A DNA stretch of 64,000 nt from Eledone cirrhosa. Its lineage: Eukaryota. Every line of letters begins with the position of its first letter. The stretch's first letter is position 1. Location of the stretch: assembly GCA_964016885.1 (NCBI GenBank), contig OZ024755.1, positions 36,642,001-36,706,000 of the forward strand, written 5' to 3'. The position numbers and the translations under genes are program-made. Shown here in pieces: positions 4,378-62,793 of this stretch. The notes beneath the pieces are model-generated. The model searched no databases and was not told the DNA's origin. It worked only from the letters and a program-made list of their open reading frames with translations.

Positions 4378-5040
4378 CAGGGTGGTCCGAAAGTCTTGTC
4401 ACCCTTATATATTGATTTAACTTTCGTTATTTTTTGTTTTAATAATATAATATATAACATCATTAACCAGTAATGCACTGAGTATTTGCTGGCCTTGTGC
4501 CTAAAGTAGAAACAATTAATTATAATATATAATAATAATAATATACTTTTCTTATAATATATAATAATAATAATAATTGTTTCTACGTTAGGCACAAGGC
4601 CTGCAATTACCCAGTGTATTACTGGTACTTTATTTTATCGACCCCGTAAGGATGAAAGGCAAAGTTAACCTCGGCGGGATTTGAACTCAGAATGGCAAGG
4701 GCCGTAACTATGCGTCAAAGCATGGCATCCGACCCTCTACCAATACTGCCAATCCACCGCCATATAATAATAATAATGATTTCATTTATTAGCCACAAGG
4801 GCCGACATGTAGGGGACAATACAAAGATAGGGGCAGTGGGGGTTTACAATAAGGTCGAGTAAAAGTGCACAATGGCAAGACTAATTTAACAATGAAGATA
4901 TAAAAATATAAAATAAATTGTATAAATATAACAAAATAAATTCCCCTATATAGAGGGTGGACGACCCAGGGTGACTCAGGTAATAATAATAATATAATTT
5001 TCTATTTGGTAGGTGGTGACAAAACTTTCGGACCACCCTG
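4378..5040. mobile_element. Tc1/mariner-type MITE with nested SINE insertions
   Basis: 26-bp TIR CAGGGTGGTCCGAAAGT(C/T)TTGTCACC at both ends; TA at 4376-4377 and 5041-5042. Confidence 0.85.
4575..4762 (-). mobile_element. tRNA-derived SINE with Nin/Deu-like central domain
   Basis: Minus strand has A box TGGCAGTATTGG, B box GAGTTCAAATCC and GCCTTTCATCCTTACGGGGTCGATAAAATAAAGTACCAG; about 20 full or partial copies in the window. Confidence 0.85.
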
Positions 5041-5415
5041 TAGAATATTTGTTCCCCTGTCTGATTATAATGTAACAAAATTTTTTTTTCTCTGTTCCTG
5101 GCTTGTAATCACTTTTTTTTTGTGTTGCTTAGGTCCCAAATAAAAAAAAAAGTGCTATTAAACAGTTAAAAGTTGGGGTTTGTAAAAATTCTAAGCTCTT
5201 CACTAGAATTATTTGTATGGATTTTACGTTGCTTATGTTAAATGATTTTTTTTAATATATGTTTCAAGTTAAATTAAAATTATAAAATAAAGAGTAATAC
5301 CTAAAGAAAATTATAAAAGTGCAATAAAGTATAAAATTGTTAAAAAGTGGATTAAAGAGATTTATTGATACTGGATTTTCGCACTCTGAATAAAGGCTAA
5401 GTTGTGTTTTAAGCA

Positions 5416-6499
5416 TTCGTCTCCAGGATGAAGCAGTGGAACTTGGTCAAGGAGGAAGTGCAGGTGACAAGTCAGAGAAGTCGACACAAACCTTTCTCAG
5501 GCTTTTACACTCTTGAGAATGGCCTCTGCTTCTGCCATGACGTGCCTGGACTGTTTGACGTTATTGGGGTACCGTTTGTGCCCAAGGAGTGGCGGCTATT
5601 TATAGACAGCTCCACCACAAGTTTGAAGGCTGTCCTCCTCCATAATGGAAACAAGTTCCCGACACTGCCCCTAGCTCATTCAGTCTGCCTGAAGGAAGAT
5701 TACTACAGTGTGAAAGTCCTCTTGGAAGCTCTACAATACAACCAGTACAATAAGGAAATCATTGGAGACTTCAAGATGGTGGCTTTCCTGCTTGGACTCC
5801 AAGGAGGCTTTATTAAATTCCAATGCTTCCTCTGCCTTTGGGACAGCAGAGCCACCTCTGACCACTACAAAAGAAAGAACTGGGAGCAGCGAACAGAATT
5901 TGTAGTTGGGACCCGGAACATCATGTGGGAGCCACTGGTTGATCCCAGGGTTGTGCTCATGCCGCCACTGCACATTAAGTTGGGGTCGATGAAGCAGTTT
6001 GTGAAGGCTCTCAACCAAGAATCAGCTGCTTTTAAGTACCTTCTTGAGTTCTTCCCCAAGTTATCTGAGGCCAAAATCAAAGGTGGAATTTTTGTTGGAT
6101 CTCAGATAAAGAAGGTGTTTGAGTCTACCGAGTTCTCCAATAAGCTCAATAGGATTGAGAGAACAGCATGGAACTGTTTCTGGGCAGTTGTTAAGGGCGT
6201 CCTGGACAACTACAGAGCTGAAAACTACCAGCAGCTGGTGCAGGATCTGATAAAGGCTTTTGGCGCCATGGGATGCAGGATGTCGCTTAAACTCCATATG
6301 CTGGACGCTCACCTAGAAAAATTCAAGGACAATATGGGCGCCTACTCAGAAGAACAAGGCGAACGATTCCACCAAGATGTGAAGGAGATAGATCGGAGGT
6401 ACTAGGGCCACTACAATGAAAAAATGATGGGGGGACTATATTTGGGGGTTAGTGCGGGAATGCGACCTGGACTACAACCGCAAATCCAGTAATTTCTGA
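5416..6499 (+). pseudogene. 5'-truncated, decayed Chapaev3-like DNA transposase
   Basis: Motifs WRLFIDSS..SLKAVLLHNGN, GDFKM, CFLCLWDSRA, PPLHIKLG, SLKLHMLDAH, SEEQGERFHQD. Premature TAG at 6403-6405, then a +1 G frameshift in MMGDYIWGLVRE. No introns. Family assignment from motif recall. Confidence 0.75.
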
Positions 6500-6549: not shown

Positions 6550-6921
6550 CATACATATACATATATATATGGCGGCTGCCAACTCGTTTTCGAGTACGGC
6601 CACTACTTTATATCCATGTAGGAGAACCCCTACCGATGCGCTGAATGTGTGTGATGTTTTAGTCCAGCCAGCGACTTGAAAACTCTGGTACAAACACTAC
6701 ACTTGTGACAATTACTGACACATAGTGCTGGGCCCATGGTACCATGTGACGACAAGTGCAGAGAGATGTCCAGATATAAAGCAATGCCTGTGCCGTGAAG
6801 CTTTTATAGTGAGCAAAGGCACTGCACAAAGCCAGTCCCACTCTCTTAACCAAGATGATATTTTACCAAAAAGAAGAACAAGTCAACATCATTGGATACC
6901 ATCAGGGTTGCAGGTGTTATA
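6550..6921. repeat. About 370-bp segment duplicated at 12060-12431
   Basis: Direct copies, about 95% identical by eye, both preceded by TACA repeats. Confidence 0.85.
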
Positions 6922-7204
6922 TCAGAGTTTCGCTTCTCCTAGAATTCTGCCTTGACAAAGACTAAGGGGTCATCTCTCCCGGTGATTTTGGATGGCCATT
7001 GACTCTTAAGAGCTCCTTTGCCCTTTGACAGGTTTTGTTTTTAGTCCTGCTGTATGTCCAAAGTCACCCTCCTCACCAAGAAACCTTGGTGGTGGTGGTG
7101 GTGGGGGGTTTGCCATGAGACAGGTTGTACTGGGATACATGTTACCAGTAGCACTGGTGACCTGACAATGTATATATATATACATACACCAACTGGTGAC
7201 CTGA

Positions 7205-11634
<4,430 letters not shown>

Positions 11635-11635
<1 letters not shown>

Positions 11636-11820
11636 AAAACATTTAAATATAAATTAATATATATGATGAAACACAAATACCAACATATCTGTATTTATAT
11701 TGTAAAAGAAAATTTAGTTAGCTAGAATTTTAGTTAGCTAAATTTTCTTTTACAATATAAATACAGATATGTTGGTATTTGTGTTTCATCATATATATTA
11801 ATTTATATTTAAATGTTTTA
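11635..11820. repeat. Inverted repeat with about 90-bp arms
   Basis: 11635-11724 pairs with 11731-11820; two differences near the loop. Confidence 0.95.
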
Positions 11821-12059
11821 CACGGCTCAGAAATATTTCTTTCTTTGAGCTAATTTCATTGTAAAGGAATTCATTACACTTAATATATATATATATATAC
11901 ATATACATACATATACAGTAGCTGGGAGCTTAACCCTGCGATGGACTGGTGTCCTGTCCAGGGGGGAGTCTTATACTCTCTCAATTCACGCCATGAAACC
12001 ACGATAAGCACCGGCCAAATGAGCCTTCTGGCTTAAGACAGACTTTAGACATACATATA

Positions 12060-12431
12060 CATACATACATATACATACATGGTGGCTGCCAACTCGTTTT
12101 CGACTACAGCCACTACTTTATATCCATGTAGGAGAACCCCTACCGATACGCTGAACGAGTGTGACATTTTAGTCCAGCCAGCGACTTGAAAACTCTGGTA
12201 CAAACACTACACTTGTGACAATTATTGACACATAGTGCTGGGCCCATGGTACCATGTGAGGACAAGTGCAGAGAGATCTCCAGATATAAAGCAATGCCTG
12301 TGCCGTGAAGCGTTTATAGTGAGCAAAGGCACTGCACAAAGCCAGTCCCACTCTCTTAACCAAGATGATATTTACCAAAAAGAAGAACAAGTCAACATCA
12401 TTGGATACCATCAGGGTTGTAGGTGTTATAT
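12060..12431. repeat. Second copy of the 6550-6921 segment
   Basis: Same sequence with scattered substitutions. Confidence 0.85.
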
Positions 12432-12544
12432 GACTCCAGTTCCCCAGTGAATTAACAACCCAGCAAGGAACTGGGCATATCAGAGTATTGACAATATCAT
12501 ACACCTAAACAACATATGTACTTGTCTATACCATACTAATTCAA

Positions 12545-12599
12545 ACTGCCTGAAGAGGTCACAGCCAAAGATGGCTGTCACTGAAATATATATAGCAGT
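12545..12599 (+). ncRNA. Minimal type-I hammerhead ribozyme
   Basis: ACTGC-CTGAAGA-GGT C ACAGCCA aaga TGGCTGT C ACT-GAAA-TATATA-TA/GCAGT, followed by AATAAA. Stem I has 5 bp and all core nucleotides are present. Confidence 0.85.
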
Positions 12600-12649
12600 A
12601 ATAAACGATGCTAAATTTTAATCATTTGACTTTTATTTAACTTTATTTT

Positions 12650-16133
<3,484 letters not shown>

Positions 16134-16135
<2 letters not shown>

Positions 16136-16277
16136 AGGAAAATATTAAACCCCGACGGCTATTTCTGGAAATAGCCGTCGGGGTTTAACATTTTCCTATT
16201 ACCCACTCTACTACGCTAAGTATTGAGTACTCTGGTGCGTTATGGTCCATCTGGTTCCTTACCACACTTCCTTCGTT
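16134..16277 (+). mobile_element. PLE-type pLTR 3' relic with 32-bp fold-back; same family as 63551-63636
   Basis: Hairpin 16134-16165/16168-16199; 16192-16277 is about 90% identical to the reverse complement of 63551-63636; TA runs on both sides. Confidence 0.7.
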
Positions 16278-16286
16278 ATATATATA

Positions 16287-16600
16287 ACCAAAGATTAGTA
16301 TGTTTCGTTGAATACAATTTTACAATAGATTAGAAGCACTCAACAAAAAAGTTTTCCTGGAGTTTTTAATATTATTCAAAATATTAACAAATGAAAAATA
16401 TTCTCATAATCAAAATATATACTTCATTATATATATTTCAAAGGTACTGTGTTGTTTTTTCAGTACGTCCTCATCAGACAAAATACATGATTTGATATAT
16501 GATATACCGCTACGGTCTTGATTATACAATTCCCGTATTGGTAGTGAGAATATTTCATTTTTTAATATATTGAATAATATATACGTATAAAAATAGGTAT
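16287..16600 (-). mobile_element. PLE-type pLTR relic carrying the hammerhead at 16417-16488
   Basis: Hammerhead, TTGAGTGC motif and a 3' end in a TA run; 5' boundary approximate. Confidence 0.55.
16417..16488 (-). ncRNA. Minimal type-I hammerhead ribozyme
   Basis: Minus strand: ATGTATTTTGT-CTGATGA-GGA C GTACTG..CAGTAC C TTT-GAAA-TATATA-TA/ATGAAGTATAT; 11-pair stem I including G.U pairs. Confidence 0.8.
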
Positions 16601-19781: not shown

Positions 19782-20240
19782 TTCTTCTTGTGATACTAAA
19801 CTCCGCCAGTTGCAGACTGCGCATCAACATGTGATATCTCTCTCCACAAAGTTCGACCACCAACAGCAGAGTTCAAAGAGCAAAGATCAAGTCCAGTCCA
19901 TAAGTTAACATTATAAAGCCATCGTTTTGACTGCCGGCCTCTGCTTCTCTTACAGCCAACCTTCCTTCCAGGCATAACCTACTCACACCATGAGTTGATC
20001 TTTTTATATGGCCGTATAGTTTGAGTATTCTTGACTTGACAATTGATGTAATTGGTCTAAGTTTGGTAATGTTGAGCAGCTCACTGATACAGATACGGTC
20101 GCTGAGCCGCTTGCCAGTCATAAGTCTCATGATGTGGTTCTAGAATGTAGAGAGCTTCTGAAGTGACCTTGTCGTCCAATTATCACAGTCAAGACCATAT
20201 AACAAAACTGGTAGGTTGTAAGTATCAAAGATCTTAGCCT
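19782..20240 (-). mobile_element. RTE-clade LINE 3' end (family A)
   Basis: RILKLYGHIKRS..CLEGRL; near-identical to other copies. Confidence 0.85.
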
Positions 20241-21510: not shown

Positions 21511-23505
21511 TGGTACACATTACTGTCAGAAACTCCTGTCTCACCTCCTCCACATGTTATTGTACATCTGGCACCACCTATATGGCAGACATTACTGTCA
21601 GAAACTCCTGTCTCACCTCCTCCACATGTTATTGTACATCTGGCACCACCTATATGGTACACATTACTGTCAGAAACTCCTGTCTCACCTCCACCACAGG
21701 TTATTGTACATCTGGCACCACCTATATGGTACACATTACTGTCAGAAACTCCTGTCTCACCTCCACATGTTATTGTACATCGGACACCACCTATATGGTA
21801 CACATTACTGTCAGAAGCTCCTGTCTCACCTCTTCCACCACATGTTATTGTACATCTGGCACCACCTATATGGTACACATTACTGTCAGGAACTCCTGTC
21901 TCACCTCCACATGTTATTGTACATCGGACACCACCTATATGGTATACATTACTGTCAGAAACTCCTGTCTCACCTCCTCCACATGTTATTGTACATCTGG
22001 CACCACCTATATGGTACACATTACTGTCAGAAACTCCTGTCTCACCTCTTCCACCACATGTTATTGTACATCTGGCACCACATATATGGTATACATTACT
22101 GTCAGAAACTCCTGTCTCACCTCCTCCACATGTTATTGTACATCTGGCACCACCTATATGGTACACATTACTGTCAGAAACTCCTGTCTCACCTCCTCCA
22201 CATGTTATTGTACATCTGGCACCACCTATATGGCAGACATTACTGTCAGAAACTCCTGTCTCACCTCCTCCACATGTTATTGTACATCTGGCACCACCTA
22301 TATGGTACACATTACTGTCAGAAACTCCTGTCTCACCTCCTCCACATGTTATTGTACATCTGGCACCACCTATATGGCAGACATTACTGTCAGAAACTCC
22401 TGTCTCACCTCTTCCACCACATGTTATTGTACATCTGGCACCACCTATATGGTACACATTACTGTCAGAAACTCCTGTCTCACCTCCTCCACATGTTATT
22501 GTACATCTGGCACCACCTATATGGCAGACATTACTGTCAGAAACTCCTGTCTCACCTCTTCCACCACATGTTATTGTACATCTGGCACCACCTATATGGC
22601 AGACATTACTGTCAGAAACTCCTGTCTCACCTCTTCCACCACATGTTATTGTACATCTGGCACCACCTATATGGTACACGTTACTGTCAGAAACTCCTGT
22701 CTCACCTCCACCACATGTTATTGTACATCTGGCACCACCTATATGGCAGACATTACTGTCAGAAACTCCTGTCTCACCTCCTCCACATGTTATTGTACAT
22801 CTGGCACCACCTATATGGCAGACATTACTGTCAGAAACTCCTGTCTCACCTCCTCCACATGTTATTGTACATCTGGCACCACCTATATGGCAGACATTAC
22901 TGTCAGAAACTCCTGTCTCACCTCCTCCACCACATGTTATTGTACATCTGGCACCACCTATATGGTACACATCACTGTCAGGAACTCCTGTCTCACCTCC
23001 TCCACCACATGTTATTGTACATCTGGCACCACCTATATGGTACACATTACTGTCAGGGACTCCTGTCTCACCTCTTCCACCACATGTTATTGTACATCTG
23101 GCACCACCTATATGGTACACATTACTGTCAGGAACTCCTGTCTCACCTCCTCCACATGTTATTGTACATCTGGCACCACCTATATGGCAGACATTACTGT
23201 CAGGAACTCCTGTCTCACCTCCTCCACATGTTATTGTACATCTGGCACCACCTATATGGTACACATCACTGTCAGGAACTCCTGTCTCACCTCCTCCACC
23301 ACATGTTATTGTACATCTGGCACCACCTATATGGTACACATTACTGTCAGGAACTCCTGTCTCACCTCCTCCACATGTTATTGTACATCTGGCACCACCT
23401 ATATGGTGCACATTACTGTCAGGAACTCCTGTCTCACCTCCTCCACATGTTATTGTACATCTGGCACCACCTATATGGTACACATTACTGTCAGGAACTC
23501 CTACC
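21511..23505. repeat. 72-bp (69/72/75) minisatellite, about 27-28 copies
   Basis: Unit GGTACACATTACTGTCAGAAACTCCTGTCTCACCTCCTCCACATGTTATTGTACATCTGGCACCACCTATAT. Confidence 0.98.
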
Positions 23506-24772: not shown

Positions 24773-27700
24773 CTGAAAATAAAATAAAAATATATAGAAT
24801 CTGTTTTACAGCCAGATGCTCTTACTGACATCAACTCTTCTCATAATTTCTTACAACACACAGGGTTATAGTGTACCTATTCTAAACCCAATACATATGG
24901 TAAAGATACACACGGCAATGATATGCAAGGAAATACACAAATAAAAATAATATACTCACCAAGAGAAGTCAAACAACGAGCAATGCAGTCCTGTACTTCT
25001 CCATAGTCTTTACTGTGATGTGTAAGTAATCTCTTCCGCACATCAGCACAGAGGCGGAAAATATTGAGGGCCGCTGGAAAGTAGTGATATTGTTTATTTA
25101 GAGATGTCTGGCAAGGTGAGATAACTAGGTGAGGACTTTGTAATATAACTATGACTTTACAGAAATCAGGAAATGTTGGCAAGAATATAGAGTGTAAAAC
25201 ATTTACATATACAAACTATTGACTCAGTGAATATGCCTCTCTTCACATTTATTGCTATATCTACAATACTTCTCTACCACCATGTCACCCTATATGTAGC
25301 TGGTACCTTACCCCAACCACAAATCTCAACTTTAGCCCACAATAGGTTGTCTTGCAGGAATTTCCAGTAGTTCTCTATGTTATAGAACTCAAATTATTTC
25401 TCCTCCTTATCCAGGACTTCATCTTCTTCTTGTGATGCTAAGCTCTGCCAGTTACAGACTGCGCATTAACATGTGCCATCTCTCTTCATGAAGTTCGATC
25501 ACCAGCAGCAGAGTTTAAAGAGCAAAGATCAAGTCCAGTCCATAAGTTGACAGTGTCAAGCCATCGTTTTGGCTGCCAGCCACTGCTTCTCTTACCAGCC
25601 AACCTTCCTTCCAGGAATATATAATTGTTTCTACTTTTGGCACAAGGTCAGCAAATATCCCAGTGTATTACTGGTACTTTATTTTATCGACCCTGTAAGG
25701 ATGAAAGGCAAAGTTAACCTTGGTGGGATTTGAACTCAGACCATAAAGGGCCGTAACTCTTTGCTGCAAAGCATGGCGTCCGACCCTCTACTAATACTGC
25801 CAATCCACCGCCCTAAGGAATATATAATTGTTTCTACTTTAGGCACAAGGCCAGCAATTACCCAGTACATTACTGGTACTTTATTTTATCGACCCCGTAA
25901 GGATGAAAGGCAAAGTCAACCTCGGCGGGATTTGAATATATAATACCTTTCGATCACCAACAGCAGAGTTCAAAGAGCAAAGATCAACTCCAGTCCATAG
26001 GTAGACATTGTCAAGCCATCGTTTTGGCTGCCAGCCTCTGCTTCTCTTACCAGCCAACCTTCCTTCCAGGTATAACCTACTCGTACCATGAGTTGATCTT
26101 TTTATATGGCCGTATAGTTTGAGTACTCTTGACTTGACAATTGATGTAATTGGTCTAAGTTTGGTAATGTTGAGCAGCTCACTGATACAGATACGGTCGC
26201 TGAGCTCCTTGCCTGTCATAAGTCTCATGATGTGGTTCTGGAATGTAGAGAGCTTCTGAAGTGGCCTTGTCATCCAATTAACACAGTCAAGACCAGCTCA
26301 CTGATACAGATACGGTCGCTTCTGAAGTGACCTTGCCGTCCAATTAACACAGTCAAGACCATATAATGCAACTGGTAGGACTTCATCTAGTACGTCTCTA
26401 AACCTAGTTATTCATTGGTACCTTAAGTTTTATATCCTCATTCTACAGACTGTCTTAAGTTTGTGTCTAGCTCTTACTCAGATGTCACTAATCATTAATC
26501 AATGCTGGGTGGTGCATTCTTCATCAAGGTAAGCATTTACAACCATACATCCATAATGTTTCCTGGTAAGAATAACATCTATCTAGATTCTATGTTCATC
26601 TGATTGGTAGGTGATCAGATGGCCGGTCGGTTACCTTATGTTGGCATTGCAGATCATCAAGCCATTTGCATCACAAAACTTCAAGAGCCTTGATCGCTCT
26701 TCATTTATAATGCCAAGGCCAAAGACTCAATGTACATCATAGAAGCCATCCTGGTGCTGCCAAACAAATCCATTATTTTATATATAAATACAGGGTGGTG
26801 GATTGGCAGTATCGGTAGAGGGTCGGAAGCCATGCTTTACAATCTGAGTTCAAATCCCGCCGAGGTTGACTTTGCCTTTCATCCTTACGGGGTCGATAAA
26901 ATAAAGTACCAGTAATGCACTGGGTATTTGCTGGCCTTGTGCATAAAGTAGAAACAATTATTTTATATATAAATAACAAATTTAATATAGAAATGGCTTT
27001 TACAAGACTAGGAGCCATTTCTATATTAAATTTCTTGTATACACTCTACTAATGTATTGAGTACCTTACTTATCAATTGAGCCCAGGACTCACACATACA
27101 CACACATATATATATATATATAGGTTTGACTGTGCAAACAAGAAACGTCACTCAATACATGGGCAGAGTGATGTATATTATATTATAACTGTGAAACTAT
27201 AACAGTGACTCAAGAGCCTGGAATCTTGTGACGCTAAACTCTGCCAGTTGCAGACTGCATATCAACATGAGATATCTCTCTCCACAAAGTTCGATCACCA
27301 GCAGCAGAGTTCAAAGAGCAAAGATCAAGTCCAGTCCATAAGTTGACATTGTCAAGAATTTGTTTAACATACTTGTACACAACTATATTTACATTCAAAA
27401 GGTATTTAGACACCAAAACTAATATTCAGGCAATATATTAAGCAATTATACAGAACAAAAGAAAGGTACCTAATGGTATTTGGATATGTTTGATGTTAGT
27501 AATGATGACAATGGGATACCATAGATGAGTGGGCAAAAATAAACACTTACCTTCAATATTGGAAGATTCTAATAAGGAGAGAGCTTTCTTGAAGTTATCG
27601 GCATCTGCTAGCAAAACTGACTTAGTATGTTTCTTGGCATTTTTACAAGCTAACTGTGACAAACACTGAAAGCATTCTTCATCCTAAAGTCAAAACAACA

Positions 27701-30700
27701 AGAAGTTATTTTAATGAATATAGAAGAGATGTATTTATTAAAGACATTATAGAAATTTATGTATACAAATATAAATATATTGATTGATGTATAATTGTGC
27801 AAATTTCTGCTTGTATGTACATATTGAAGATGTTGAAGCAAATTCACTCCGTGACAAGCTGAATTTTCATATCATCATTTAACGTCCATTTTCCACGCTA
27901 GCATGGGTTAGATGGGTTGTCTCGTTTGAGGCAAGTCGGGTCAGGTGACCATGTCTTGCTCATACAGAACTGTTTCTGGCTTGGTTTCTACAGCCAGATG
28001 CCCTTGCTAACGCCAACCACATTTACAGTGTGTGCTGGGTGCTTTTTGTTGTGACACCTACACGACCACTTTACAGTGTGTGCTGGGTGCTTTTTGTTGT
28101 GACACCTACATGACCACTTTATAGTGTGTGCTGGGTGCTTTTTGTTGTGACACCTACATGACCACTTTACAGTGTGTGCTGGGTGCTTTTTGTCATGACT
28201 CCTATTTGACCACTTTACAGTGTGCTGGGTACTTTTTGTCATGACACCTACACGACCACTTTACAGTGTGTGCTGGGTGCTTTTTGTTGTGACTCCTACA
28301 CGACCACTTTACAGTGTGTGCTGGGTGCTTTTTGTTGTGACACCTACATGACCACTTTACAGTGTGTGCTGGGTGCTTTTTGTTGTGACACCTACATAAC
28401 CACTTTACAGTGTGTGCTGGGTGCTTTTTCTCGTGACTCCTATATGACCCCTTTACAGTGTGCTGGGTACTTTTTGTCATGACACCTACACGACCACTTT
28501 ACAGTGTGTGCTGGGTGCTTTTTGTTGTGACACCTACACAACCACTTTACAGTGTGTGCTGGGTGCTTTTTCTCATGACTCCTACACAACCACCATGTTT
28601 TGTCTAACCTATGCAAGCATCGAAAACTGGTCGTTAAATGGTGATGATGATGATGTCTTTGTCAGACATAGTAGAAGAAAGTTTAACAGCACAAGGAGAT
28701 GTGAGAGTTAAATATGGTGTAGAGTTCATACAGTGTAAACATCAGAGAGGCACTAGTTGCTAATGAGTTGTGTGGTGATGGTGGTGGTGGAGGTGGTGGC
28801 GGTGGTGGTGATGGTGGTGGTGGTGATAGTGGTGGTGGTGGAGATGGTTGTGGTGGTGGTGGTGATGGTGGTGGTGATGGTGGTGGTGGTGGTGGTGATG
28901 ATGGTGGTGGTGATAGTGGTGGTGGTGATGGTGGTGGTGGTGATGGTGGTGGTGATAGTGGTGGTGGTGCTGATGGTGGTGGTGGAGATGGTTGTGGTGG
29001 TGGTGGCGATGGTGGTGGTGGTGGTGTTGGTGGTGATGGTGATGGTGGTGGTGATGGTGGTGGTGGTGGTGTTGGTGGTGGTGATTGGGATTACAGTTAA
29101 GAGGATGACAGAGAGGAAGACAATAACAAAAGTAACAATGATAATATTCATGATGGTAGTGGTGATGATATACCAAAGATGAAGGTTTATTCGACCCTTC
29201 CACAATACAGGCTTCACAATGACATGTAAAGAAATATTGATCCTTCAGAATCTGTTGACGTTCCAGAAAATCCATCCTGAAGCTATGAGGTCCTACAAAG
29301 AGAAATGTCAGGATCATGTCAAATTTGTGATGAAACTGTACCAAAGGTCATATCAGAAATGTTTCTAACATCTTTAGTGTAGAAGGATCACTAAGCTTTA
29401 TCTCTAAAAATCTAAATGATACTACAGTGAACTGAGGACACTAAAGTGTGATAACAACATACAAAAGATATTGATTTCTTTATTGATTATATATTTATTT
29501 ATCCAAAAGATAACATTAACCCTTTAGCATTTACTATTTATAATAATGATAATAATGAAATTATTGTGTAAAGTGGTCAGGTGCACTACAACTTGTCAAT
29601 ATAGTACATAGAATAATACACAAATGTCAGGGAAGTACATGTGTGTATGTGTTAGCTGTAGTGTTGGCGGATCTCGGGAAGCATGGAGACCTTAAAGGAT
29701 GCAGTGTCTCGACAGCTAACAACTGATGCAGGTAGTTTGTTCCATGCTTCAGCAACTCTTTTACTACACTATATTTACTATTGTATTTTCACGGTAAACA
29801 CTATCTCACATAACAGAATTTACGAGATTTTGATATTATTTATTTTGAGAAAAATACCTTAACAGCAGCCGGTTTGAACAGAAAAGGTGAGAGAATTATG
29901 GCCAGATATGGTTGGTTTAAATGCTAAATGGTTAATGAGTAACAAAAATGAAGCATAGATATTGCAATACGAAAGCAGTTCAGTTAAGTATGAATATTGG
30001 AGTGTATTAATATGTAAGATGAAAATAATATTGTACCGTAACAACTGAAAATTTCTTTTCCTTTTGTGATATCTCTTACTGAACGAACAATCAAACTATC
30101 TTTCTGAAAACTAAAAACAAACATTATGATAGTTTTTGGTTAAAAAGTCATTTTATCATTTTATATTTCTTTTAGTTCTGTTAAAAAAACATGTCGGGTC
30201 ACACCTGAGTGCTACTGGTAACATGTAACCCAGTACAACCTGTCACATGGTTGGGTCGTCGGCGACTAAACTGGCAACCTCACCAAGTTTACTTGGTGAG
30301 GAGGGTGATTTTGGACACCCTGCAGGACAAAAGCCAAAACCTGACAAAGGGCGGAAGAACTCATAAGAGTCAACAGCCATCTAAAAAGAATTAAAAAAAA
30401 TCCTGCCAAATCAATGGGTGGCAGTGGTTCCAGCTACACACATCAAAAGACTGGTGTAGTGGTTCTGAGAACAATGTGGCTTTGCAGATGATCAATACAA
30501 ATTGACAATGGAAAGGTGCTCCCGCTCGAGTTAGAAGAGAACTATTGACCTTCAGGAGAAGCAGTGACCCCTGATTGTATTCAGCAACCAAAACAAATAT
30601 GAAGTACACCAAATCCAATGCTCCTAGGGGTGGCCCTGGTTCTTCTTATTTGTGAGTGTAAACTCGGCCAGATTAGATTAGATTAGATTAGATTAGATAA

Positions 30701-32835: not shown

Positions 32836-35800
32836 ATACACACACATTATATATATATACATAAGGGCGGTGGATTGGCAGTATCAGTAGAGGGTCGGAC
32901 GCCATGCTTTCCAGCATAGTTACGTCCCTTTACTATCTGAGTTCAAATCCCGCCGAGGTTGACTTTGCCTTTCATCCTTACGGGGTCGATAAAATAAAGT
33001 ACCAGTAATGCACTGGTAATTGCTGGCCTTGTGCCTAAAGTAGAAACAATTATATATATATACATACACACACTGTAAAGTGGTTGTGTAGAAGACACGG
33101 TAAAAAGGCTCCCAGTCCACACTGTATATGTGGTAGTCTCCTACACGACCACTTTACAGTGTGGACTGGGTGCTTGATACTGTGTCTCCTACACGACCAC
33201 TTTACAGTGTGGACTGGGTGCTTGATACTGTGTCTCCTACATGACTACTTTACAGTGTGGACTGGGTGCTTTTTACTGTGTCTCCTACATGACCACTTTA
33301 CAGTGTGGACTGTGTTTTTTTTGCTGTGACACCTACACGACCTCTTTAGTTTGGACTGGATATTGTGGTACCAACTTTACAGAGAGAGGGTGGTGTTGGT
33401 GGGAGTGGGAGGATGGAGTAGGGGTAGTGGGTTGGGGTGTATATTTGGTTAAGAGGTGCCTACTGACTGTAGGTTAACTTTGTACATAGGCAAGGCGGGT
33501 CTTCTGTATTACTGCATGGCGCTAAAGATCTCGGTCCAGTGACATTGTCTTAGAGGTGTGCAAGATCAAATTTTATCATGTTTTTCTGGGTCTACCTACT
33601 CTGTAACTTCCATCAATTTTGATCGCCCTGCACTTTTTTATACAGCTCTCATCTTTCATGCGCATCACGTGACCATACCAACGTAGTCTTCTCTCAAGTA
33701 AACAGCATCTGATCCCTCTTATTCCTAATTTCTCACTTAGTTCGTTCATGTTTTGCCGTTCGTGTATATTACTATTACACATCCAACAGAGCCTGCATGC
33801 TTCATTCCTTTCCAGTCAGCACAGGTCCTCTGCACACAATGCCCATGTCTCACTGCCATGTAACACTGAGAGAAGGGGGGTGGGTGTAAGCATATTAACA
33901 ATGTATGAGAGAGATTCTAGAAGGGTCCATCAGATTTAACAATATCTAAAATACATAATTCCAAGAGACAAAAGTTTGTTAGATAATAGATGTAAGCATA
34001 TTACAATGTGTGAGTGATCATAAATAACAAAAAGGTATGGACAGAACGAAGTTCCCAACACATATCTAGTAAGTTATATCTGCATAGAAATATATAAAAG
34101 GCAAAGAATGACAATTAAAACAAAAAAAAGTAATGTTTTACCCAATATATTTCAAGTGAAGGCGCGTGGCCGAGTGGTTAGAGAATTAGATGTAAAGTGG
34201 TTGTGTAGATGTCACAACAAAAAGCACCTAGTACTCACTGTAAAGTGGTTGTGTAGGAAACACGGCAAAAAGTACCCAGTACTCACTGTAAAGTGGTTGT
34301 GTAGATGTCACAACAAAAAGCATCCAGTATTCACTGTAAAGTGGTTGTGTAGATGTCACAACAAAAAGCATCCAGTACTCACTGTAAAGTGGTTGTGTTG
34401 GAGACACAACAAAAAGCACCCTGTACTCACTATAAAGTGGTTATGAAGATGTCACAACAAAAAGCACCCAGTACTCACTCTAAAGTGGTTGTGTAGGAAA
34501 CATGGCAAAAAGCACTCAGTACTTACTGTAAATGAGGTTGGTGTTAGGAAGAGCATCCAGCTGTAGAAACCAAGCCAAAATCAATTCTGTATGAGCAAGA
34601 CATGGTCACCTGATCTGGCATTGCCCACAACAGGACAACTCACCTAACCCATGCTAAATGGACATAAAACGGTGATGATAATGATTGCAAGTTCAATTTG
34701 CTTTTAGAATTATTTGACATTAAATGTTTCAATTATAATTAATACAAAGCATTGTGAGATATGTGATAAATGACTAAGCTTCAGAAAGCCGGTACAATGT
34801 GGTAGGAATATATAAAGCCCAAAGGATGACTAATGAAAACAAAATAATGTTTTACTCAGTATATTTCAACATGATATTTGAAAAGAAAGTAATAACTCTG
34901 AAATATCGAATGTCGATTTCAATATGATATTTCAGAGTTATTACTCTCTTTTCAAATATCATGTTGAAATATACTGAGTAAAACATTATTTTGTTTTCAT
35001 TAGTCATCCTTTGGCCTTTATATATTCCTACCACATTGTACCGGCTTTCTGAAGCTTAGTCATTTATCACATATCTCACAATGCTTTGTATTAATTATAA
35101 TTGAAACATTTAATGTCAAATATTTCTAAAAGCAAATTGAACTTGCAATCATTATCATCACCATTTTATGTCCATTTAGCATGGGTTAGGTGAGTTGTCC
35201 TGTTGTGGCAATGCCAGATCAGGTGACCATGTCTTGCTCATACAGAATTGATTTTGGCTTGGTTTCTACAGCTGGATGCCCTTCGTAACACCAACCTCAT
35301 TTACAGTAAGTACTGAGTGCTTTTTGCCGTGTTTTCTACACAACCACTTTAGAGCGAGTACTGGGTGCTTTTTGTCATGACATATTCATAACCACTTTAT
35401 AGTGAGTACAGGGTGATTTTTGTCGTGTCTCCAACACAACCACTTTACAGTGAGTACTGAATGGTTTTTGTTGTGACATCTACACAACCACTTTACAGTG
35501 AGTACCAGGTACTTTTTGTCATCTCTCCTACACATCCACTTTACAGTGTGGGCTGGATGTTTTTGCAATGGTTATAAGAATAAAATGTTAAGCTTACCAA
35601 AGTGTATTGGAGCTGGTCATCAACAGCGAAGTCAGAGGAATGAGTGATTAGTTTGTACACAGAAAAATAGTTGGTCTCATAGCAACCATCATCATTAAGA
35701 CCAGCAATACCAGAAAGAGATGTATCTTTTGCACGACTTTTTTTGAAATCTATAAACAAATATATTTATGGAAACTAAAATGAAATAAAAAACACATATC

Positions 35801-37704: not shown

Positions 37705-38142
37705 AAGAAAACTGTAAATTTTATAGTCTCACCAATGAGAACTTGTAAACCAGTCACCAAAACGACTCGCAGACTTAAGTGAGCAATGCCAATCTGGCAA
37801 AAAAAGAAAGAAAAAAAAGATAAAATTATATATATATATATTGGAAAATGTGCAAAATCCTTGGTACAGTTAGGTTTATATAAAAAAAGGAAAAGAATGA
37901 CTTCACTAAACAATTTAATCTAATTCTATAATATTATAATTTTACAATTTGGTTTTGTACAAAACCAAATTGTAAAATCATAATATTATAGAATTAGATT
38001 GTGTAGACTACAGGTGAAGTCATTCTTTTCCTTTTTTTAAATATATATATATATAATAATAATAATAATAATATAAGGGAATAAAGAATCAGTGTTGCAT
38101 TTGGCATACCACCTACAGGCGCAATTAATTTGCACCTCTAAT

Positions 38143-38882: not shown

Positions 38883-41800
38883 AAAAAGCAATGAATAATC
38901 TTTTAGTCTAATTGAAGCAGACATCAAGTATACAAATGTTGAAGAAGTAAAGTGGTGAGAATCACTTGCAGAGTATGGAGAAAAAGTAGGCACTTATTCA
39001 ATATTCCAACATCACTAGTTATATGAATAACATTCTAGTTGTAGATGTAGCATGGCCGAATGGTGGGAGAGTTGACTTTGCAATTATTAGGTCTTGGATT
39101 ACACCCAACAATGTGGCATTTTGGGCAAGTGTCAACTTATGCCTTGTGAATAAAATTGGGCAGAAGGTAATTGTTTGGAAGTTTGTTGGATGGATTATAC
39201 TCATATTTCAGAAGTTCAGCTTTCTCACACACTGTGTCTTGTTGAATCTCGTTAAAGGTTCACTTGTCTGTGGAATACTCAGCCATTTACACGTTAATTT
39301 CACAAGCAGGCAGCTTCTTTAACACTTGTGGTTTCAAAATGACAGTGATTCATTCCACTTTTATCCAATACTCATTAGCATATAGTACCAGGTTTTAAAA
39401 TGCCTTAGACACGTCTTAAATACAGCAAATTTCTTCCAGAGAAGGGTAGAGTGAGAGAATGAAAGTGAGAAAGAGATATAGAAGAAGAATTGATCCCAGT
39501 ACTTGACTGGTATTTATTGACCTCAAATAGATGAAAGGTAAAGCTGACCTCGATGGGATTTGAACTCAGAGAACGGAGTGCCAAAATGAATACCATAAAG
39601 CATTCTATCCAATGTTCTAATGACTCTGCCAATTCACTGCCTTATAGATACTTTTAAGAAGGTATAAATAAGAAATGACTTACAAGAAAGATATTATAGG
39701 ATGAACTATACAAAATAACTTACTGAATGTAGTAATTTGAGAAAATAACATTCCACATAGTGAGAAGAGGCCCAATCTTTTACGCGACATTTGTGGCTGC
39801 AGTAGAGGACATTGCAGCATCTTTGGCAGCTGGCAAAAATATAAGAAAGCTATGAATGGCATTATACTGTAAAGAATAATTATATAAATTGTCTGCACTC
39901 TTGACAAGAGTGTAAATGTTAAAGGGTTAATAATGAATATTGATGAAAGGTGGGAAAAAGGTAGACAAAAAATTTTGTAGATGGTATAAGGATAAATACT
40001 TTGAAGAATGATACTTACGGGATAGGAGAAATTAAGTCAACAAAACAGTTATTGCAATGACATAAATAGTAATCAGGCAGCAGGACAGCAGCATATGGTT
40101 TCTCTACAATAAGGACATCTCCTGCTTTAATAGGATGTTTAGCCTGAAAATATTCAAAACAACATCAGATAGAGAGGAAAAACATGTTGGTATATTATAT
40201 AAAATATATGTATGAAGACCACGAAAAACATGGATGGAGGTGATAAGAGCTAACATCACTAGTTGGTACGATCTCATGTGTCTCAAACAATTTAGGCTCA
40301 AGTTTAGTGGCTTTTAGTGTTGTTTTGAGTTGGTCCTTATATCTTTGAAGAGGCCAACCCTGTGGTCTTTTCTCTGAAGTGAGCTTGCTGAATAAAACTT
40401 GACATGGAAACCTTGACTCTTCCATTCTTACTACATGTCCTGACCATCAAAAATGGTGTTTCATGGTCAAAGATTTGATGCTTTGACTGTTGGTTCTTGC
40501 AAGGACTTTGTTATAAGTCACATAGTATTCCCATTTGATGTTCAAGATTAAATGAAGCTTTTGCTGGTTAAGTGTTCTAATTTTTGGATGTTGCGTCATG
40601 AGAACCTCTGATGTAGAGTCCAGGTTTCACAGCCATATAGTAAGGTTGACAGGAATAACAGCATTAGAGACCATAATTTTTGTTAAGTTCAGATGTTTGT
40701 TGTTGAAGACCTGTTCGATTATCTTTCCTAATGTCCTGTGTGCAGCGCCAATTGTGTTCCATATCCTTTTCTGAGGTGCATTTGTTTGATAAAAGGCTGC
40801 CTAGATATGGAAAATGCTCTACTTGTTCAAGAGGTGTATCAGAAATGGCACTATCAAATCCTGGTAAAATGATATTTGGGGCTGGTTATACAAGGAACTT
40901 GGTTTTCTTGATGTTTACAGTAAAGTCAAAGTAATGGTAGGCCACAACAGAGTTGCTCACAAACAGTTGGAGTTCTTCTTTCGAATGACAGAGGGCAGTG
41001 TCGTCATCAGTCAGCATATTCTGAGACATACGCGTATAAGAGGGATAAGTTGTGGTGTGCAGGAGAGAAGGCTGAGATGGTATGGACATGTGATGCACAT
41101 GGAAGATGACCACTGGGTAAAGAAGTGCCAAGAAATCCCAGTTGAAGGAAGACGCAGTAGAGGAAGACCACAAAAATCATTGGCGGAGGTGGTGAGAGCA
41201 GACCTCAGATCGCTAACGCTCACGGAGGAGATGAGGAAGGACCGTGACGAATGGAAAGATGCTGTGCTGAATAGGACCCGTCCCACCCTTGCAAGCAGGG
41301 AAAAGCGGACGTAGAATGATGATGATGATGATGATGCATGTGTATTGCAAGGTTGAAAAGTTGAAAAGTTCTCCATTATATCTGGATTGACTGGAGGATA
41401 CTGGAGGAAGTTCGTGAAACATTACAGCCAGATACAAGCAGAATGGTGTTAGGTGCCAAGATGTATCCTTGTTTTAGTCCACACATGATTGGAAAGTCTT
41501 CTGACATTGTGTTTTGGTGGAATATACATATTGTCATGCATTGCTTGAACCAGAGAGACAAAATGGTTAGGACATCCAAAACGATGACAAACTTTCCACA
41601 TAGCAGTTCTTGGAACACTGTCAACATTTTGCAAGTCATAGAAAACAAAGAAAAGGGTTTTTTGTTGTTCCCTGCTTTTCTCTTGTTAAGTTGGTAATTG
41701 GAGAATAACTTAAAGGTTCTTGCATAAAATATTTGTTTCTACTTTTGGTACAAGGCCAGCAATTACCCAGTACATTACTGGTACTTTATTTTATCGACCC

Positions 41801-44800
41801 CATAAGGATGAAAGGCAAAGTTGACCTTGGCGGGATTTGAACTCACATCATAAAGGGCCATAACTCTATGCTGCAAAGCATGGCGTCCGACCCTCTACCG
41901 ATACTGCCAATACACCGCCCTAATAATAATAATTGTTTCTACTTTTGGTACAAGGCCAGCAATTACCCAGTACATTACTGGTACTTTATTTTATCGACCC
42001 CGTAAGGATGAAAGGCAAAGTTGACCTCGGCGGGATTTGAACTCAGAATGGAAAGGGCCATAACTCTATGCGTCAAAGCATGACGTCCGACCCTCTACCG
42101 ATACTGCCAATCCACCGCCCAATGCTGTTACATAAAATAATGATGGCAGGTTTTTAGACAGATATAAACAAGTTAACATAAACAGTTTTGCATCATAGAA
42201 CCAAGGGTAGTTTCAGGGGTATGAAAAGGGTTAAAGCTATTGTTTCACCATTCTGAGCGCCGGAGCTGTGGAGAGGCCAACACGTGGGACCCCAGAGAGA
42301 TGGGGAGGGCGAGAGAGATGGAGGTGATGACGGTGGGAGTTCGGCTAATCCACATATCCTTGTGGACTCCCTTATTTTCCCCCTTCTGATACATTGATTA
42401 TATTTTGTAAAAGTTCACTTACTGTTAAAAGAAGGCAGCGAAGTAACTTTGAGAAATGAATTAACTGTAAAGAGTTATTTATATAATGAAGTGTCACCAA
42501 TATTGATGAACAATTAATCTGAAGTGACATCATTTTTCAAACTAATAAAAAAAACCATTCCTGAACTTACTTGAAGATGTCGACCTACACTGCTATTACT
42601 ACAGAGTTCCACAGCACTTGATGCACCGCTAATGATAGAATTTGTGCCATAACTAACTTCGGTGTAGTCTTCTGAGATATCATCAGTGTCCTCGAGATGA
42701 GTTGAGGCAATATAATTTGGTAATTCCATTTCACTATAAAATAAAGGAAAAAAGGTTTGAGAAAAACCTTAGTTAATAATGATGGTGGAATGATGGATGG
42801 TGATGTCTGGTTGTTAATGTCATTGTTGTTGTTATTTAGACCCAAATCAGCCCAGATCATACAAATCTATCACAAAAAATATTCTGTCAATTTTTTAAAC
42901 ATAGTGTATCTAGGTTCACATTATCCAATGAGTCTTTCTTTTCCAAGATATTAAGATGTAAGGTGGTCATGTAGCTGTCACGACAGAAAGCACCCAGTCC
43001 ACACTGTAAAGTGGTCATGTAGCTGTCATGACAGAAAGCACCCAGTCCACACTGTAAAGTGGTCATGTAGCTGTCACCACAGAAAGCACCCAGTCCACAC
43101 TGTAAGGTGGTCGTGTAGGTGTCATGACAAAAAGCACCCAGTCCACACTGTAAAGTGGTCATGTAGAAGTCATGACAGAAAGCACCCAGTCCACACTGTA
43201 AAGTGGTCATGTAGCTGTCACGACAGAAAGCACCCAGTCCACACTGTAAAGTGGTCGTGTAGGAGTCACGACAGAAAGCACCCAGTCCACACTGTAAATG
43301 TGGTTGGCATTAGGAAGGGCATCCAGCTGTAGAAATCTAACCAGGAACGGTTCTATATGAGCAAGACATGGTCATCTGACCCAACTTACCTCAAATGGGA
43401 CAACCCGTCTAACTCATGCTAGCATGGAAAGTGGACATTAAATAATGATGATGATGATGATGAAGGATATATAATATATATATTACTAAATATTCCAATC
43501 ACATTCTACTAATCACCTAAAGGCTTTCAATTTAGTTTTTGGTGGACTTTTGTATGTTATTATTTCTCATTGCTGACTAGAATAGCGTCAGAACCTGATA
43601 AAGCCAAACTCTATGTTTATAACTTAATAAATTTCAAAATCGAGTTGTGTATCCTTTACCAAATAGCTATTGCATCTCTCAAAGACGATGACACAGGACT
43701 GTGACCTCTGGTGTCACACAGTAATACAGAAGACCCGACTTCCCACGGGTACAAGCCGAAGCTGGAGCATATAGACACTATGCCCCCACCCCCTCCCACT
43801 GTAAAGTGGTCATGTAGGTGTCACAACAAAAAGCACCCAGCCCACACTGTAAAGTGGTTGTGTAGGTGTCACGGAAAAAAAGCACCCAGCACTCACTGTA
43901 AAATGAGGTTGGTGTTAGGAAGGGCATCCAGCTGTAGAAATCAAGCCAGAATCAATTCCTGTATGAGCAAGACAAGGCCACCCGACCTGGCATTGTCCAC
44001 AACAGGACAACCCATCTAACCCATGCTAGCATGGAAGAATGGACGTAAAACGATGATGATGATGAGGATATCTTCTATTTTTCTGATTAGTAATAGTGCC
44101 AGGAACAAATCTCCAAAAGCATTCTTTCAAAGTCATTAAACTTTGTATTGTATAACCCATGCCAGTGTGGAAAAATGGACGTTAAACGGTGATGATGATG
44201 ATGATGACGACGATGATGATTTGAAATTGGTAAATATTCAAGAAATTAAATATTTCTCAAGCTTACATTTTAGTTTCCACTTTCTTCAACCAGTTTTGAA
44301 AATCAGACAATAAACTTTCTGTTATAAAAGAGAAAGAGAGATATATAAAAAACACCCTAAAATACACTCACACAATTGAAGGGGAAAAACGACAGAGGAC
44401 TAAACAAGAGAATGTGGTTAAGAAGGCTTTCGTTAAGTATTGGAATGAGATATATAACAAAGGTGGTTTGAATATGAGATGGAGTATAGGATCGAATGCT
44501 GAGTTTTTAGTGAGGCTGGGAAGGAAAAAGGTGGTTAAAACTGCATGTTTTCAGTTTTTCTACCTACTATACTAGTCAAAGGTGCATGTATAGTACAAAG
44601 AATAATGTACAAATGTCAGGAAAGTGAACAGTGAATGAGTCATGATATACATGTGTGCATGTGTATGGAGGTGGAATATCAGGTGTAGTGTTGGCGAATT
44701 TTGAAGGATGCAGTGTCCCAACAGCTAACAACTGATGCAGGTAGTTTGTTCCATGCTTCAGCAACTCTCAGCATGAAAAAATGTTTCTGAAAGTCATAGG

Positions 44801-47800: not shown

Positions 47801-50800
47801 TGTTAAGGTATTGTTCTCAAAATAAATAATATCAAAATCTCATAGATTAGATATGTGAGGCAATTATGTGAAGTAAAGCTTTTACCATGAAAATATAATA
47901 GTATATATAGAGTAATGTAAATGTTAAAGGGTTAAATGATGAAATCAGAGATAAGCACTATCTCAGAAGATTATGGAGGTTTATGAAAAGACAGTTTTGA
48001 CATCTGACAATGGGAGACTTGTATACAATATATATTTGACCCCAAGAAGAGTAGAACATATCTCTACATAATAGACTGTTATACAATGTATATTATATCA
48101 TAAGAATACTAGAATATCACTCTACATACATGACAACAGAGTTCTTGTAAATTTTAGTGCTACTGCTTGTTTATGGCTCTATCACTTGGACGCTAACGTC
48201 GAAACTGGAGAAAAAGCTAGACAGGGCATACACACGTATGCTCCGTGCTGCTTTAAACGTGTCTTGGAGGGAACACCCAACAAATAAGGATCTCTATGGC
48301 AATATACCACCTATCAGCAGGTCAATACATGGACAGAGACTCAGATTTGCTGGCCACTGTTGGCGCAGCAAGGAAGAAATAGCAGGTGATGTGTTGTTAT
48401 GGAGTCCATCTCATGGAGCAAGAAACGCTGGTCGTCCCAAGAAGACATACGTCAAGCAACTTGAGGACGATACTGGATGCACTGCGGAAGAACTGGCAAA
48501 CGCTATGAGAGACAGAGATGGATGGAGGAAATGTGTCGTAGAAAGCCGAGCAAGCTCGACCTGATGATGATGTCTGCTGCTTAGAATGGCAGGGTGTTCT
48601 GAACTTGTGGTATCTATTTACAGCTAGGTGGACTGTGGCATTTGAGAGCTGTGTCTGGCAGGGTGTTCTAAACTTGTGGTATCTATTTACAGCTAGGTGG
48701 ACTGTGCCATTTGAGAGCTGTGTCTGGCAGGGTGTTCTGAACTTGTGGTATCTATTTACAGCTAGGTAGACTGTGGCATTTGAGAGCTGTGTCTGGCAGG
48801 GTGTTCTGAACTTGTGGTATCTATTTACAGCTAGGTAGACTGTGGCATTTGAGAGCTGTGTCTGGCAGGGTGTTCTGAACTTGTGGTATCTATTTACAGC
48901 TAGGTGGACTGTGCCATTTGAGAGCTGTGTCTGGCAGGGTGTTCTGAACTTGTGGTATCTATTTACAGCTAGGTGGACTCTGTGTAGTGAGCAAATGGGG
49001 TCTTCCCCCGTGCTGGTCACCCCACAGCTCCGGTGGACAGAATGGAGAAGGCGTTTCCCCGGAGGATGGTAAGGGAGATGCGCTGGAAGAGCCATTCCAT
49101 CTCGCGAGGCTCACACCGGCGGCTGGCCAGGTGAGTAGGGAGGTAGCCCTACGGCCAAGGACATCAGAAGTCTTCACTGCCAAGGGCACAACCGCAAACC
49201 TGTCGGAGAGTGACTGGTACTTGGAGAGTTTGGCCTCCTCAGCCCGAAGTGCAACAGAACCTTGGTTAGTAGCAGATAGTATCAGCAACAGAAAAATCAA
49301 TCACTTGATTCCTTGGTTTGATCTGATGATCAACTCCTTTCCTTTTTCTTTACAGTAATAACAGTTTCTGATTTAGGCACAAGGCCAATACATTTTTTTG
49401 AGGGAGAAGAGAGTCGATTATATCAACCACAGTACATTAGTGGTGATTTATTTTATTGACCCTATAAGGATAAAAGGCAAAGCTAACCTTGGCAGGATTT
49501 GAACTCAGAACATAAAGGGCCATAACTATGCCACAAAGCATGTTGTTGAACACCCTACTGATACTGTCAAATAACAGCAACAATAATGTTTCCTTCTATT
49601 TGATGGAAACAAGTTTAGAGTTACTCTCACTGTTGACAGCAAAAGGTTTCTTCCTACGTACAAAAGGACACCTGTATGATACCTCTGTGTGAAGTGCAAT
49701 AATGCATGGCAGTGAAACATGTTCAGAAACTGCAGAAGACATGCGTAGATTGGAAAGAAATGAAGCAGCCATGCTTCATTGGGTGTGCAATGTAAATGAG
49801 AGAGAAAGACAGCGCTTGGATGAACTGAAGGAGAAACTGGGTTTAAGAGGAATCCAAAGTTGTGTGCAAGAGAGAAGACTGCGTTGATACAGACATGTGA
49901 TGTGCGTGGATGATGATTATTGGGTGAAGAAGTGCTAAGAAATCCCAGTGGAGGGAGGCCACGGTAGAGGCAGACCAAGGAAAACCTGGGCAGATGTGGT
50001 GTGAGCTGACCTCAGATCATTGAGACTGACAGAAGAGATGATGAAGGAATGTGGTGAGTGGAGAGGTGCTATGCTGATAAGGACCCATCCAACCCAAATG
50101 GATATGATGATGATGATGAGAGAATAAGTGCAAAACATGAGAATGTTGTGAATGAAACTGAAATTGATAACTGAGCTGATGATTCTATTCGAAAATGGCT
50201 TGCCACTGCATTAACATTTTATTACACAATATAAAAGAATAAAAAAATTAGCAAGATTAGCTGAACACTCACCTGGTATTTGCCAAGGTGATAGAGGGCT
50301 GCAGATCGATTGGAATAACAAAGAGTAAGTTCACTTGAAGTTAATGGGGCCAATGTTAAGCCCTAAAAGAGAAAGAAATGGAAAACACATTTGAATAACA
50401 AGAAGCAAATACATTGAAATAAAATTGTGCTAATGCTAAACATATATATATATATATATATGGTCCCGTAACTCCTTTAGAGTCGAAGGGACACTGTATT
50501 GACATACAATGTTTCTTGGGTTTTTTAAGCCTGGCGGAGCTCATCCCTCTCCAAGTCATTTTTAATAGTTGGAAAGAGTAGATTGGCAGAATTATTAATG
50601 TCAGACAAAAGGCTTGGCATTATTAGTTCTAGTATCATTTAGAGCGTTGGACATTATGCTTTGCAGCAATTACGGCCCTTTACATTGAGTTCAAATACCG
50701 CGGAGGTTAGCTTTGCCTTTTATCATTACGGGTTCAATAAAATAAAGCACCAGTAACATACTGGGGTTGATTTAATCAACTTTCTCCTCCCACCTGAACT

Positions 50801-62745: not shown

Positions 62746-62793
<48 letters not shown>

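Follow-up and report, generated by a model that had tools for sequence, protein, structure and literature searches.

We asked whether a hammerhead-like sequence beside a long TA-rich array in this window (the whole stretch of DNA that was analysed, 64,000 nucleotides) is a genuine ribozyme motif, whether it is likely to cleave, and to what kind of element it belongs. The original prediction had singled it out as the cleanest hammerhead here and the best candidate for an active ribozyme, without naming the parent element. The motif comprises the following features.

12545-12599, plus strand: type I hammerhead, hereafter H1 (sequence, descriptor scan, shuffles and fold).
12586-12593, plus strand: palindrome ATATATAT, 8 nt, the sole helix III of H1 (sequence, duplex and cofold).
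12600-12605, plus strand: AATAAA, followed by a T-rich stretch to 12640 (sequence).

The hammerhead motif H1 and related motifs in the window

H1 is a genuine hammerhead motif. Its helix I is formed by five Watson-Crick pairs (ACTGC at 12545-49 with GCAGT at 12595-99), and CTGAAGA (12550-56), GAAA (12583-86), T12593 (U16.1) and A12594 (H17) supply the complete type I core, C3 U4 G5 A6 N7 G8 A9 / G12 A13 A14 A15.1 / U16.1 H17. Helix II (12557-12582) begins with G·U, G-C and U-A, is interrupted by a C×C mismatch and continues as a distal helix of 7 bp (ACAGCCA/TGGCTGT) closed by the loop AAGA. The G10.1-C11.1 pair is absent, its place being taken by a G·U (12557/12582); a register moved by one gives G·U followed by U×C. 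Helix III is nothing but the palindrome AUAUAUAU, and a palindromic helix III of this kind is a mark of dimer-type hammerheads. The AATAAA and the T-rich stretch behind it look like the polyadenylation signal of the element. The stem I, core, 7-bp distal stem II and AATAAA that the original prediction had described were all found at their places in the sequence, and its predicted cleavage site, 12594|12595, agrees with hammerhead numbering and falls 3' of the triplet AUA.

A looser scan returned five motifs (12550+, 16477-, 63042+, 62893- and one at 34906-34965). Those other than H1 and the last are listed here.

16417-16488, minus strand: H2, of the same build as H1 but in another repeat family, with a helix I rich in G·U (scan).
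63038-63095, plus strand: H3, with U·U at the base of helix II, C×C, the palindrome ATGATCAT, an AUA site and AATAAA.
62840-62897, minus strand: H4, the inverted twin of H3, within the palindrome 62787-63148.

H2 and H3/H4 stand in two repeat families other than that of H1. The left end of the H3/H4 palindrome runs into (TA)n, and AATAAA follows the motif in H3/H4 too, as it does in one loose end of run X10 (see below). Four of the five motifs, H1 to H4, agree in four features: helix III is palindromic, the fourth pair of helix II is C×C, GAAA is preceded by U11.1 and the triplet is AUA. This combination was found in none of 126 matches from 150 shuffled windows, and no part of it is demanded by the descriptor. 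When the three distinct motif sequences are compared, both partners change in 10 of 14 pairs, which none of 500 shuffles reached; this covariation is partly circular because the motifs were chosen for pairing, and it comes from three sequences in all. With a covariance model built from these four motifs, neither the window nor four loci yielded another member at E < 1. The C×C mismatch common to the three families may define a small structural subclass that is absent from the tables compared. H1 alone among the motifs of the window has a 5-bp helix I made entirely of Watson-Crick pairs.

We also considered whether H1 is a chance look-alike thrown up by AT-rich, low-complexity sequence. Its helix III letters are merely (AT)4 and lie beside TA tracts, Rfam gave no hammerhead match (at the gathering score over the window, or up to E = 10 over 11880-12680), and the loose descriptor yielded 0.84 matches per shuffled window. 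However, a strict descriptor matched once in the 64-kb window, at H1, and in none of 300 locally dinucleotide-shuffled windows; three further motifs show compensatory changes and a different palindrome, ATGATCAT; and the motif is conserved across the repeat family in which H1 lies. The 55-nt motif folds with z = -2.6, and folds of H1 in isolation (55-76 nt) contain helix I as well as helix II around the core, helix I being the open end. A chance origin is close to refuted, and we find it scarcely credible.

The fifth motif (34906-34965, minus strand) lies at the centre of a 1.3-kb palindrome (34265-35566) and has a U3-A8 core (TTGAAAA), a 6-bp helix I of AT pairs only and the minimal palindrome ATAT, with a partial copy on the other strand at 34880. 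It could be due to chance; the U3-A8 variant is known from schistosome Penelope-like elements (PLEs) (PMC4209133). Fold-back palindromes of 60-185 nt were seen at 11636-11819, 16134-16199, 37877-38043, 26975-27036, 4466-4626 and 33073-33207. Most of them touch a TA-rich or (TA)n stretch and resemble inverted PLE ends, and the scan found no hammerhead in them.

Repeat B, its neighbours and the surrounding locus

The sequence around H1 is made up of repeats.

7200-11634, no strand assigned: impure (TA)n array of 4.4 kb, about 900 nt left of H1 (sequence).
12081-12431, minus strand: repeat A, unrelated to repeat B, with a decayed frame that has a C2H2 finger at its end (contigs, second copy).
12428-12645, plus strand: repeat B, the host repeat of H1, a non-coding, 5'-truncated copy of about 220 nt (contig depth, loose ends, junction).
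12428-12481, plus strand: 54-nt hairpin at the start of repeat B (fold z = -2.9).
12645-16136, no strand assigned: impure (TA)n/(TG,CA) array of 3.5 kb, directly 3' of repeat B (sequence).

H1 had been described as wedged between two multi-kb TA tracts. The tracts do have that length, but both are impure alternating purine-pyrimidine sequence, with longest pure (TA)n runs of 42 nt (left) and 46 nt (right), and H1 is near the right one only: the first (TA)5 lies 60 nt 3' of the cut site, whereas about 900 nt of other repeats separate H1 from the left tract. The array at 12645-16136 is likely to be the insertion target, expanded later.

Logan contigs of 4 of the 24 listed runs were aligned to the 601-nt stretch 12060-12660. 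In run X1, 9,474 contigs aligned, and their summed depth was 7.2-7.9e5 over H1 against 3.6-4.7e5 just upstream, where contig depth is no copy number. Repeat B is clearly abundant. Since 13 X1 contigs carry other sequence 5' of 12428, the copy studied here appears 5'-truncated. Copies of the family are dispersed and truncated at the 5' end, and the motif lies close to their 3' end (45 nt from it in this copy): depth climbs toward H1, other copies reach 5' beyond 12428, and the loose ends of contigs show tails that are T-rich or (TA)n. The H1 motif was covered in runs X1, X4 and X10, three of the four aligned. In one X10 piece the common sequence is the 54-nt motif alone, with a different 3' flank in which AATAAA is again present. 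No listed run was designated as RNA, and run X20, by guess an RNA run, had no cover over 12438-12605; neither point bears on expression. The 5' hairpin recurs in pieces of X1, X4 and X10, and it is not an inversion specific to this copy because it is also present in the contig of another organism (X10 piece 14).

Variants at a frequency of at least 5% in X1 fell on 1 of 55 motif positions (12569, in loop II) and on 9 of 84 positions upstream, a contrast that is not significant (Fisher p = 0.09) and is suggestive at most. The letters of H1 are those of the family majority, and the copy deviates at just three listed sites in repeat B (12463, 12498 and 12609). Because an abundant family shows these same letters in its majority, the H1 locus is not special; the motif looks clean because the multicopy repeat is represented here by a young copy, and not on account of a function tied to this locus.

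The island 12081-12645 splits at 12431: there, in contigs of all four runs, repeat A continues with different sequence, and repeat B joins repeat A at a common ATAT. The island had been considered as one element with a plus-strand GIY-YIG end, and this was rejected on the split into two repeats; its three read-through frames gave no Pfam match and no homolog among 62 candidates. Repeat A has an (ATGT)n tail at 12047-12080 and a second copy at 6571-6922 (94.6% identical), on which zf-C2H2 reached E = 0.003, below the cut-off. It is a candidate LINE/SINE 3' end, which may be RTE-like.

Over the 564 nt of repeats A and B together, 29-51% of sampled 31-letter words were common to runs under 14 other organism labels, and therefore at least one of the two repeats has very low divergence across those labels. 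With A and B queried together, 16 organism labels were found among 20 of the 24 listed runs. We claim no horizontal transfer, because four runs were aligned, the B motif was present in three of them and the labels hold for A and B jointly. Exact matches to family B numbered zero in public metagenome contigs, and a scan with the class pattern gave zero viral matches. Three viral-contig matches to family B and three prokaryote matches to the class pattern were discarded, as all six lacked hammerhead stems on inspection.

The window contains a complete gene.

54001-24522, minus strand: SMYD4, complete and multi-exon (TPR, MYND and SET), compared with Octopus sinensis SMYD4.

Its exons are 59-88% identical to those of Octopus sinensis SMYD4, save for one piece aligned across introns, which points to a coleoid cephalopod as the likely host. 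In the alignment the gene stops one codon short of the Octopus sinensis protein. H1 lies 12 kb behind this stop on the opposite strand. A 72-bp tandem array of about 27 units, with several frames open, occupies 21511-23502, 1 kb behind the SMYD4 stop. A 330-aa open frame at 5413-6405 (plus strand) has no Pfam match and is interrupted at 6504 by the microsatellite tail of a repeat A copy; it may be the remnant of a DNA-transposon transposase. Between two short TA/CA runs lies a 130-nt SINE-like piece (11915-12047), single in the window, which may resemble a widespread SINE tail. A minisatellite family of 48-50 bp occurs in both orientations at 1-454, 28016-28593, 33136-33359 and 34191-34550, with further sites at 35292-35548, 42957-43304 and 43797-43902. 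Numerous short 3' fragments of LINE RT frames with a G-R-R-x-R-G-R-P-type end were seen at 19782-20213, 25881-26297, 50963-51327 and 60588-61013, and also at 40868-41314, 48151-48564 and 56210-56650.

Predicted folding and cleavage of H1

The claim that H1 is the best candidate for an active ribozyme is not borne out by its modelled folding or by its published look-alikes. A stable helix III was not found in the monomer, where closing it costs 3.4 kcal/mol and its pair probability is 0.03-0.15. As a self-duplex the 8-bp palindrome ATATATAT reaches -3.2 kcal/mol, which is weak, and the optimum of a two-copy cofold has the 8-bp intermolecular helix III without an active core. Folding in five contexts also showed a competitor of helix I and the core.

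12548-12559, plus strand: competing hairpin GCCU-GAAG-AGGU (pair probabilities in five fold contexts).

The pair probability of this hairpin was 0.49-0.70 in the three longest contexts and 0.14-0.22 in the two shortest, and that of helix I fell from 0.78-0.84 with short flanks to 0.02-0.08 with at least 25 nt of natural flank. With longer natural flanks the core is thus predicted to be sequestered in the hairpin.

Both G10.1·U11.1 and the AUA triplet are sub-optimal for cleavage of H1. Of four triplets compared in a viroid hammerhead, AUA was the slowest (PMC1636495), and natural hammerheads with U·U at the base of helix II have been reported (PMC3088659; PMC7229834). PLE hammerheads of the same build as H1 showed no cleavage as monomers and low cleavage as dimers (PMC4209133), and tandem PLE transcripts would bring pairs of hammerheads together (PMC6765202). 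From the folds and these relatives, H1 is predicted to cleave poorly and mainly as a dimer.

Probable affiliation of H1 with Penelope-like elements

The window also contains a piece of a PLE coding region.

63642-63998, plus strand: Penelope-like ORF fragment (HMMER search and profiles).

The fragment comprises the end of the RT thumb, a C-x4-C-x2-C linker and the start of the GIY-YIG region, carries an inverted hairpin at its 5' end (63660-63722) and lies about 500 nt beyond the H3/H4 palindrome and 51 kb from H1. In a full HMMER search it had 370 relatives at E <= 0.001, and the order is RT-linker-GIY-YIG; a word-index search with it gave nothing among 24 candidates. The linker is of the CX2-5CxxC type of Neptune/Nematis, in contrast to the CxCX5C of the Hydra clade. 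Its own hammerhead is not seen because the fragment runs off the window end. Loci of its clade were absent from viral and genome contigs, and one was found in metagenomes (L007); this sole public locus has no such hammerhead in the 340 nt behind the match.

Metazoan PLE hammerheads resemble H1 in being of type I with a helix II of 7-8 bp, a helix I of 4-5 bp, a small palindromic helix III and AU-rich flanks (PMC4209133). They occur mostly as solitary truncated copies, with opposite-strand pairs 100-700 bp apart (PMC4209133). The inverted H3/H4 pair is like these pairs, and its position beside (TA)n is the inverted, 5'-truncated arrangement known for PLEs. The nearest row among those in Fig. 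S3 of the same source is the D. willistoni PLE, with a 5-bp helix I, an 8-nt palindrome and AUA; it also has U before GAAA, the GAAA column having been placed from the PDF text (PMC4209133). A D. virilis PLE variant is likewise among the closest systems (PMC4209133). H1 differs from the PLE min-HHRs in lacking both their typical G10.1-C11.1 and their extra nucleotide after A9, and from metazoan PLE hammerheads in its G·U at the base of helix II (U·U in H3), its C×C fourth pair and the absence of a linked ORF (PMC4209133).

The PLEs of the Hydra clade have in common with H1 the (TA)n target, a hammerhead near the 3' end and a palindromic helix III, of 3-4 bp in Hydra (PMC8557442). Counted by eye in Files S1/S2 of that source, 18 of 26 rows have U before GAAA and 12 of 26 have A at the cut site. 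However, all 26 rows have C at 15.2 and a helix III starting with AC, whereas H1 has U and starts with AU, and C×C in helix II, present in H1, occurs in none of the 26 (PMC8557442). Penelope-13_HM of this clade has an inverted copy with a second motif, and Hydra-1_Obim of Octopus bimaculoides is unlike H1 in sequence (PMC8557442). Five short H1/H3 motifs were absent from the text of the same supplement, in which line breaks can hide matches.

We consider it probable that H1 is the hammerhead of the 3' end (pseudo-LTR) of a PLE that inserts into (TA)n, here as a truncated copy, and that it would cut weakly and mainly as a dimer. Insertion into (TA)n, as in Neptune, Hydra and Naiad, was found for repeat B at one locus, whose 3' end abuts (TA)n and whose 5' junction is ATAT, and also for H4. 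H3/H4 display the partial tandem or inverted 5'-truncated arrangement; repeat B displays the 54-nt hairpin, which recurs elsewhere. No RT/GIY-YIG ORF is linked to the hammerhead repeat at the truncated B copy, and tblastn with 150 PLE relatives and two profiles found no PLE coding remnant in repeat B, matching 63642-63998 only; the faint likeness of a frame of repeat B to PLE C-termini failed to score (E 0.6-0.7). As no ORF is linked at the H1 locus, we infer the PLE membership of repeat B.

From published PLE work, the GIY-YIG endonuclease of the element would nick (TA)n, and the RT would start copying the RNA at a 3' end some 50 nt past the cut site and break off early. Two hammerheads, in a tandem transcript or in two RNAs, would join through their AUAUAUAU palindromes, which would form an 8-bp helix III. 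A cut after A12594 would leave 2',3'-cyclic phosphate and 5'-OH ends and part the body from the AAUAAA. Because the copy holds both sides of the cut site, the template RNA would have been uncut or re-ligated there. The lone, ORF-less copy behind SMYD4 is likely to be a passive insertion.

It is possible, if rather unlikely, that repeat B is a short non-autonomous element in its own right, a non-LTR retrozyme or SINE-like monomer of about 250 nt, whose transcripts from tandem masters would be cut by paired hammerheads, circularised and returned to the genome by a PLE enzyme acting in trans. Repeat B resembles the non-LTR retrozymes (PMC7229834; Li et al. 2026): it is short and non-coding, and its type I hammerhead would need a dimer. 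Its lack of an ORF, its size within the 150-450 bp retrozyme range (PMC7229834) and the recurrence of its 5' hairpin in the X1, X4 and X10 pieces would fit. The axolotl retrozyme HHR_Amex2 also accommodates U·U as the basal pair of helix II (PMC7229834), monomers commonly occur singly, and pLTRs gave rise to retrozymes (bioRxiv 10.64898/2026.07.22.740005). However, the defining traits of non-LTR retrozymes are head-to-tail tandem units that each carry a hammerhead, the canonical contacts between loops I and II, and circular RNAs (PMC7229834). No tandem copy of repeat B is present in the 64-kb window, and no joint of a 3' end to a 5' end was found among the joints listed, a weak negative with short contigs and 173 further loose ends. 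Also against it are the T-rich or (TA)n tails of copies, their continuation to the 5' side of 12428, and the fact that no canonical loop I/II contact was recognised. The readings of repeat B as a PLE 3' end and as a retrozyme-like monomer are kin (bioRxiv 10.64898/2026.07.22.740005).

A further possibility is that H1 is active as a ribozyme specific to this locus and has been retained because it processes a transcript of the host, such as an antisense or read-through RNA; we think this very improbable. The wholly intact core letters, the 5-bp Watson-Crick helix I, the isolated fold of 55-76 nt with helices I and II and the AATAAA behind the site would agree with it. Against this, the motif is the majority form of an abundant family, and the three listed differences in repeat B are those of any young insertion; no gene was found on the strand of H1 here, SMYD4 ending at 24522 on the minus strand; and the monomer is predicted to misfold in its natural context.

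As the 3' end of a PLE, H1 is a kind of sequence already described (Cervera and De la Peña 2014; Craig 2021). Thousands of such motifs are present per animal genome (PMC4209133), and the H1 copy therefore matters little alone. The repeat annotation of O. vulgaris lists 31 recently active Penelope-like families, with ribozymes absent from its main text (PMC13282606). Among the papers searched, none dealt with these cephalopod families or with the C×C subclass, which may be on record already, for example in Lünse, Weinberg and Breaker (RNA Biol 14:1499). A bolder proposal, which we regard as speculative and improbable, is that the motifs form an undescribed cephalopod subclass of hammerheads (3 bp - C×C - distal helix II, U11.1, an 8-nt palindrome, AUA and AAUAAA directly behind) in at least three unrelated families that target (TA)n. 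C×C would then be a docking site replacing the loop-loop contact, and repeat B would spread as a small circular RNA that is non-autonomous and in which cleavage and polyadenylation compete.

The role of hammerheads in endonuclease-bearing PLEs is an open question according to Craig et al. 2021 (PMC8557442). The H1 family offers a clean test case: it is abundant and young, its motif is intact, and a poly(A) signal lies six bases past the cut. The palindrome can be swapped between families (AUAUAUAU versus AUGAUCAU) as a test of dimer specificity. If H1 is indeed the 3' end of a PLE, cephalopod families would be added to a known class.
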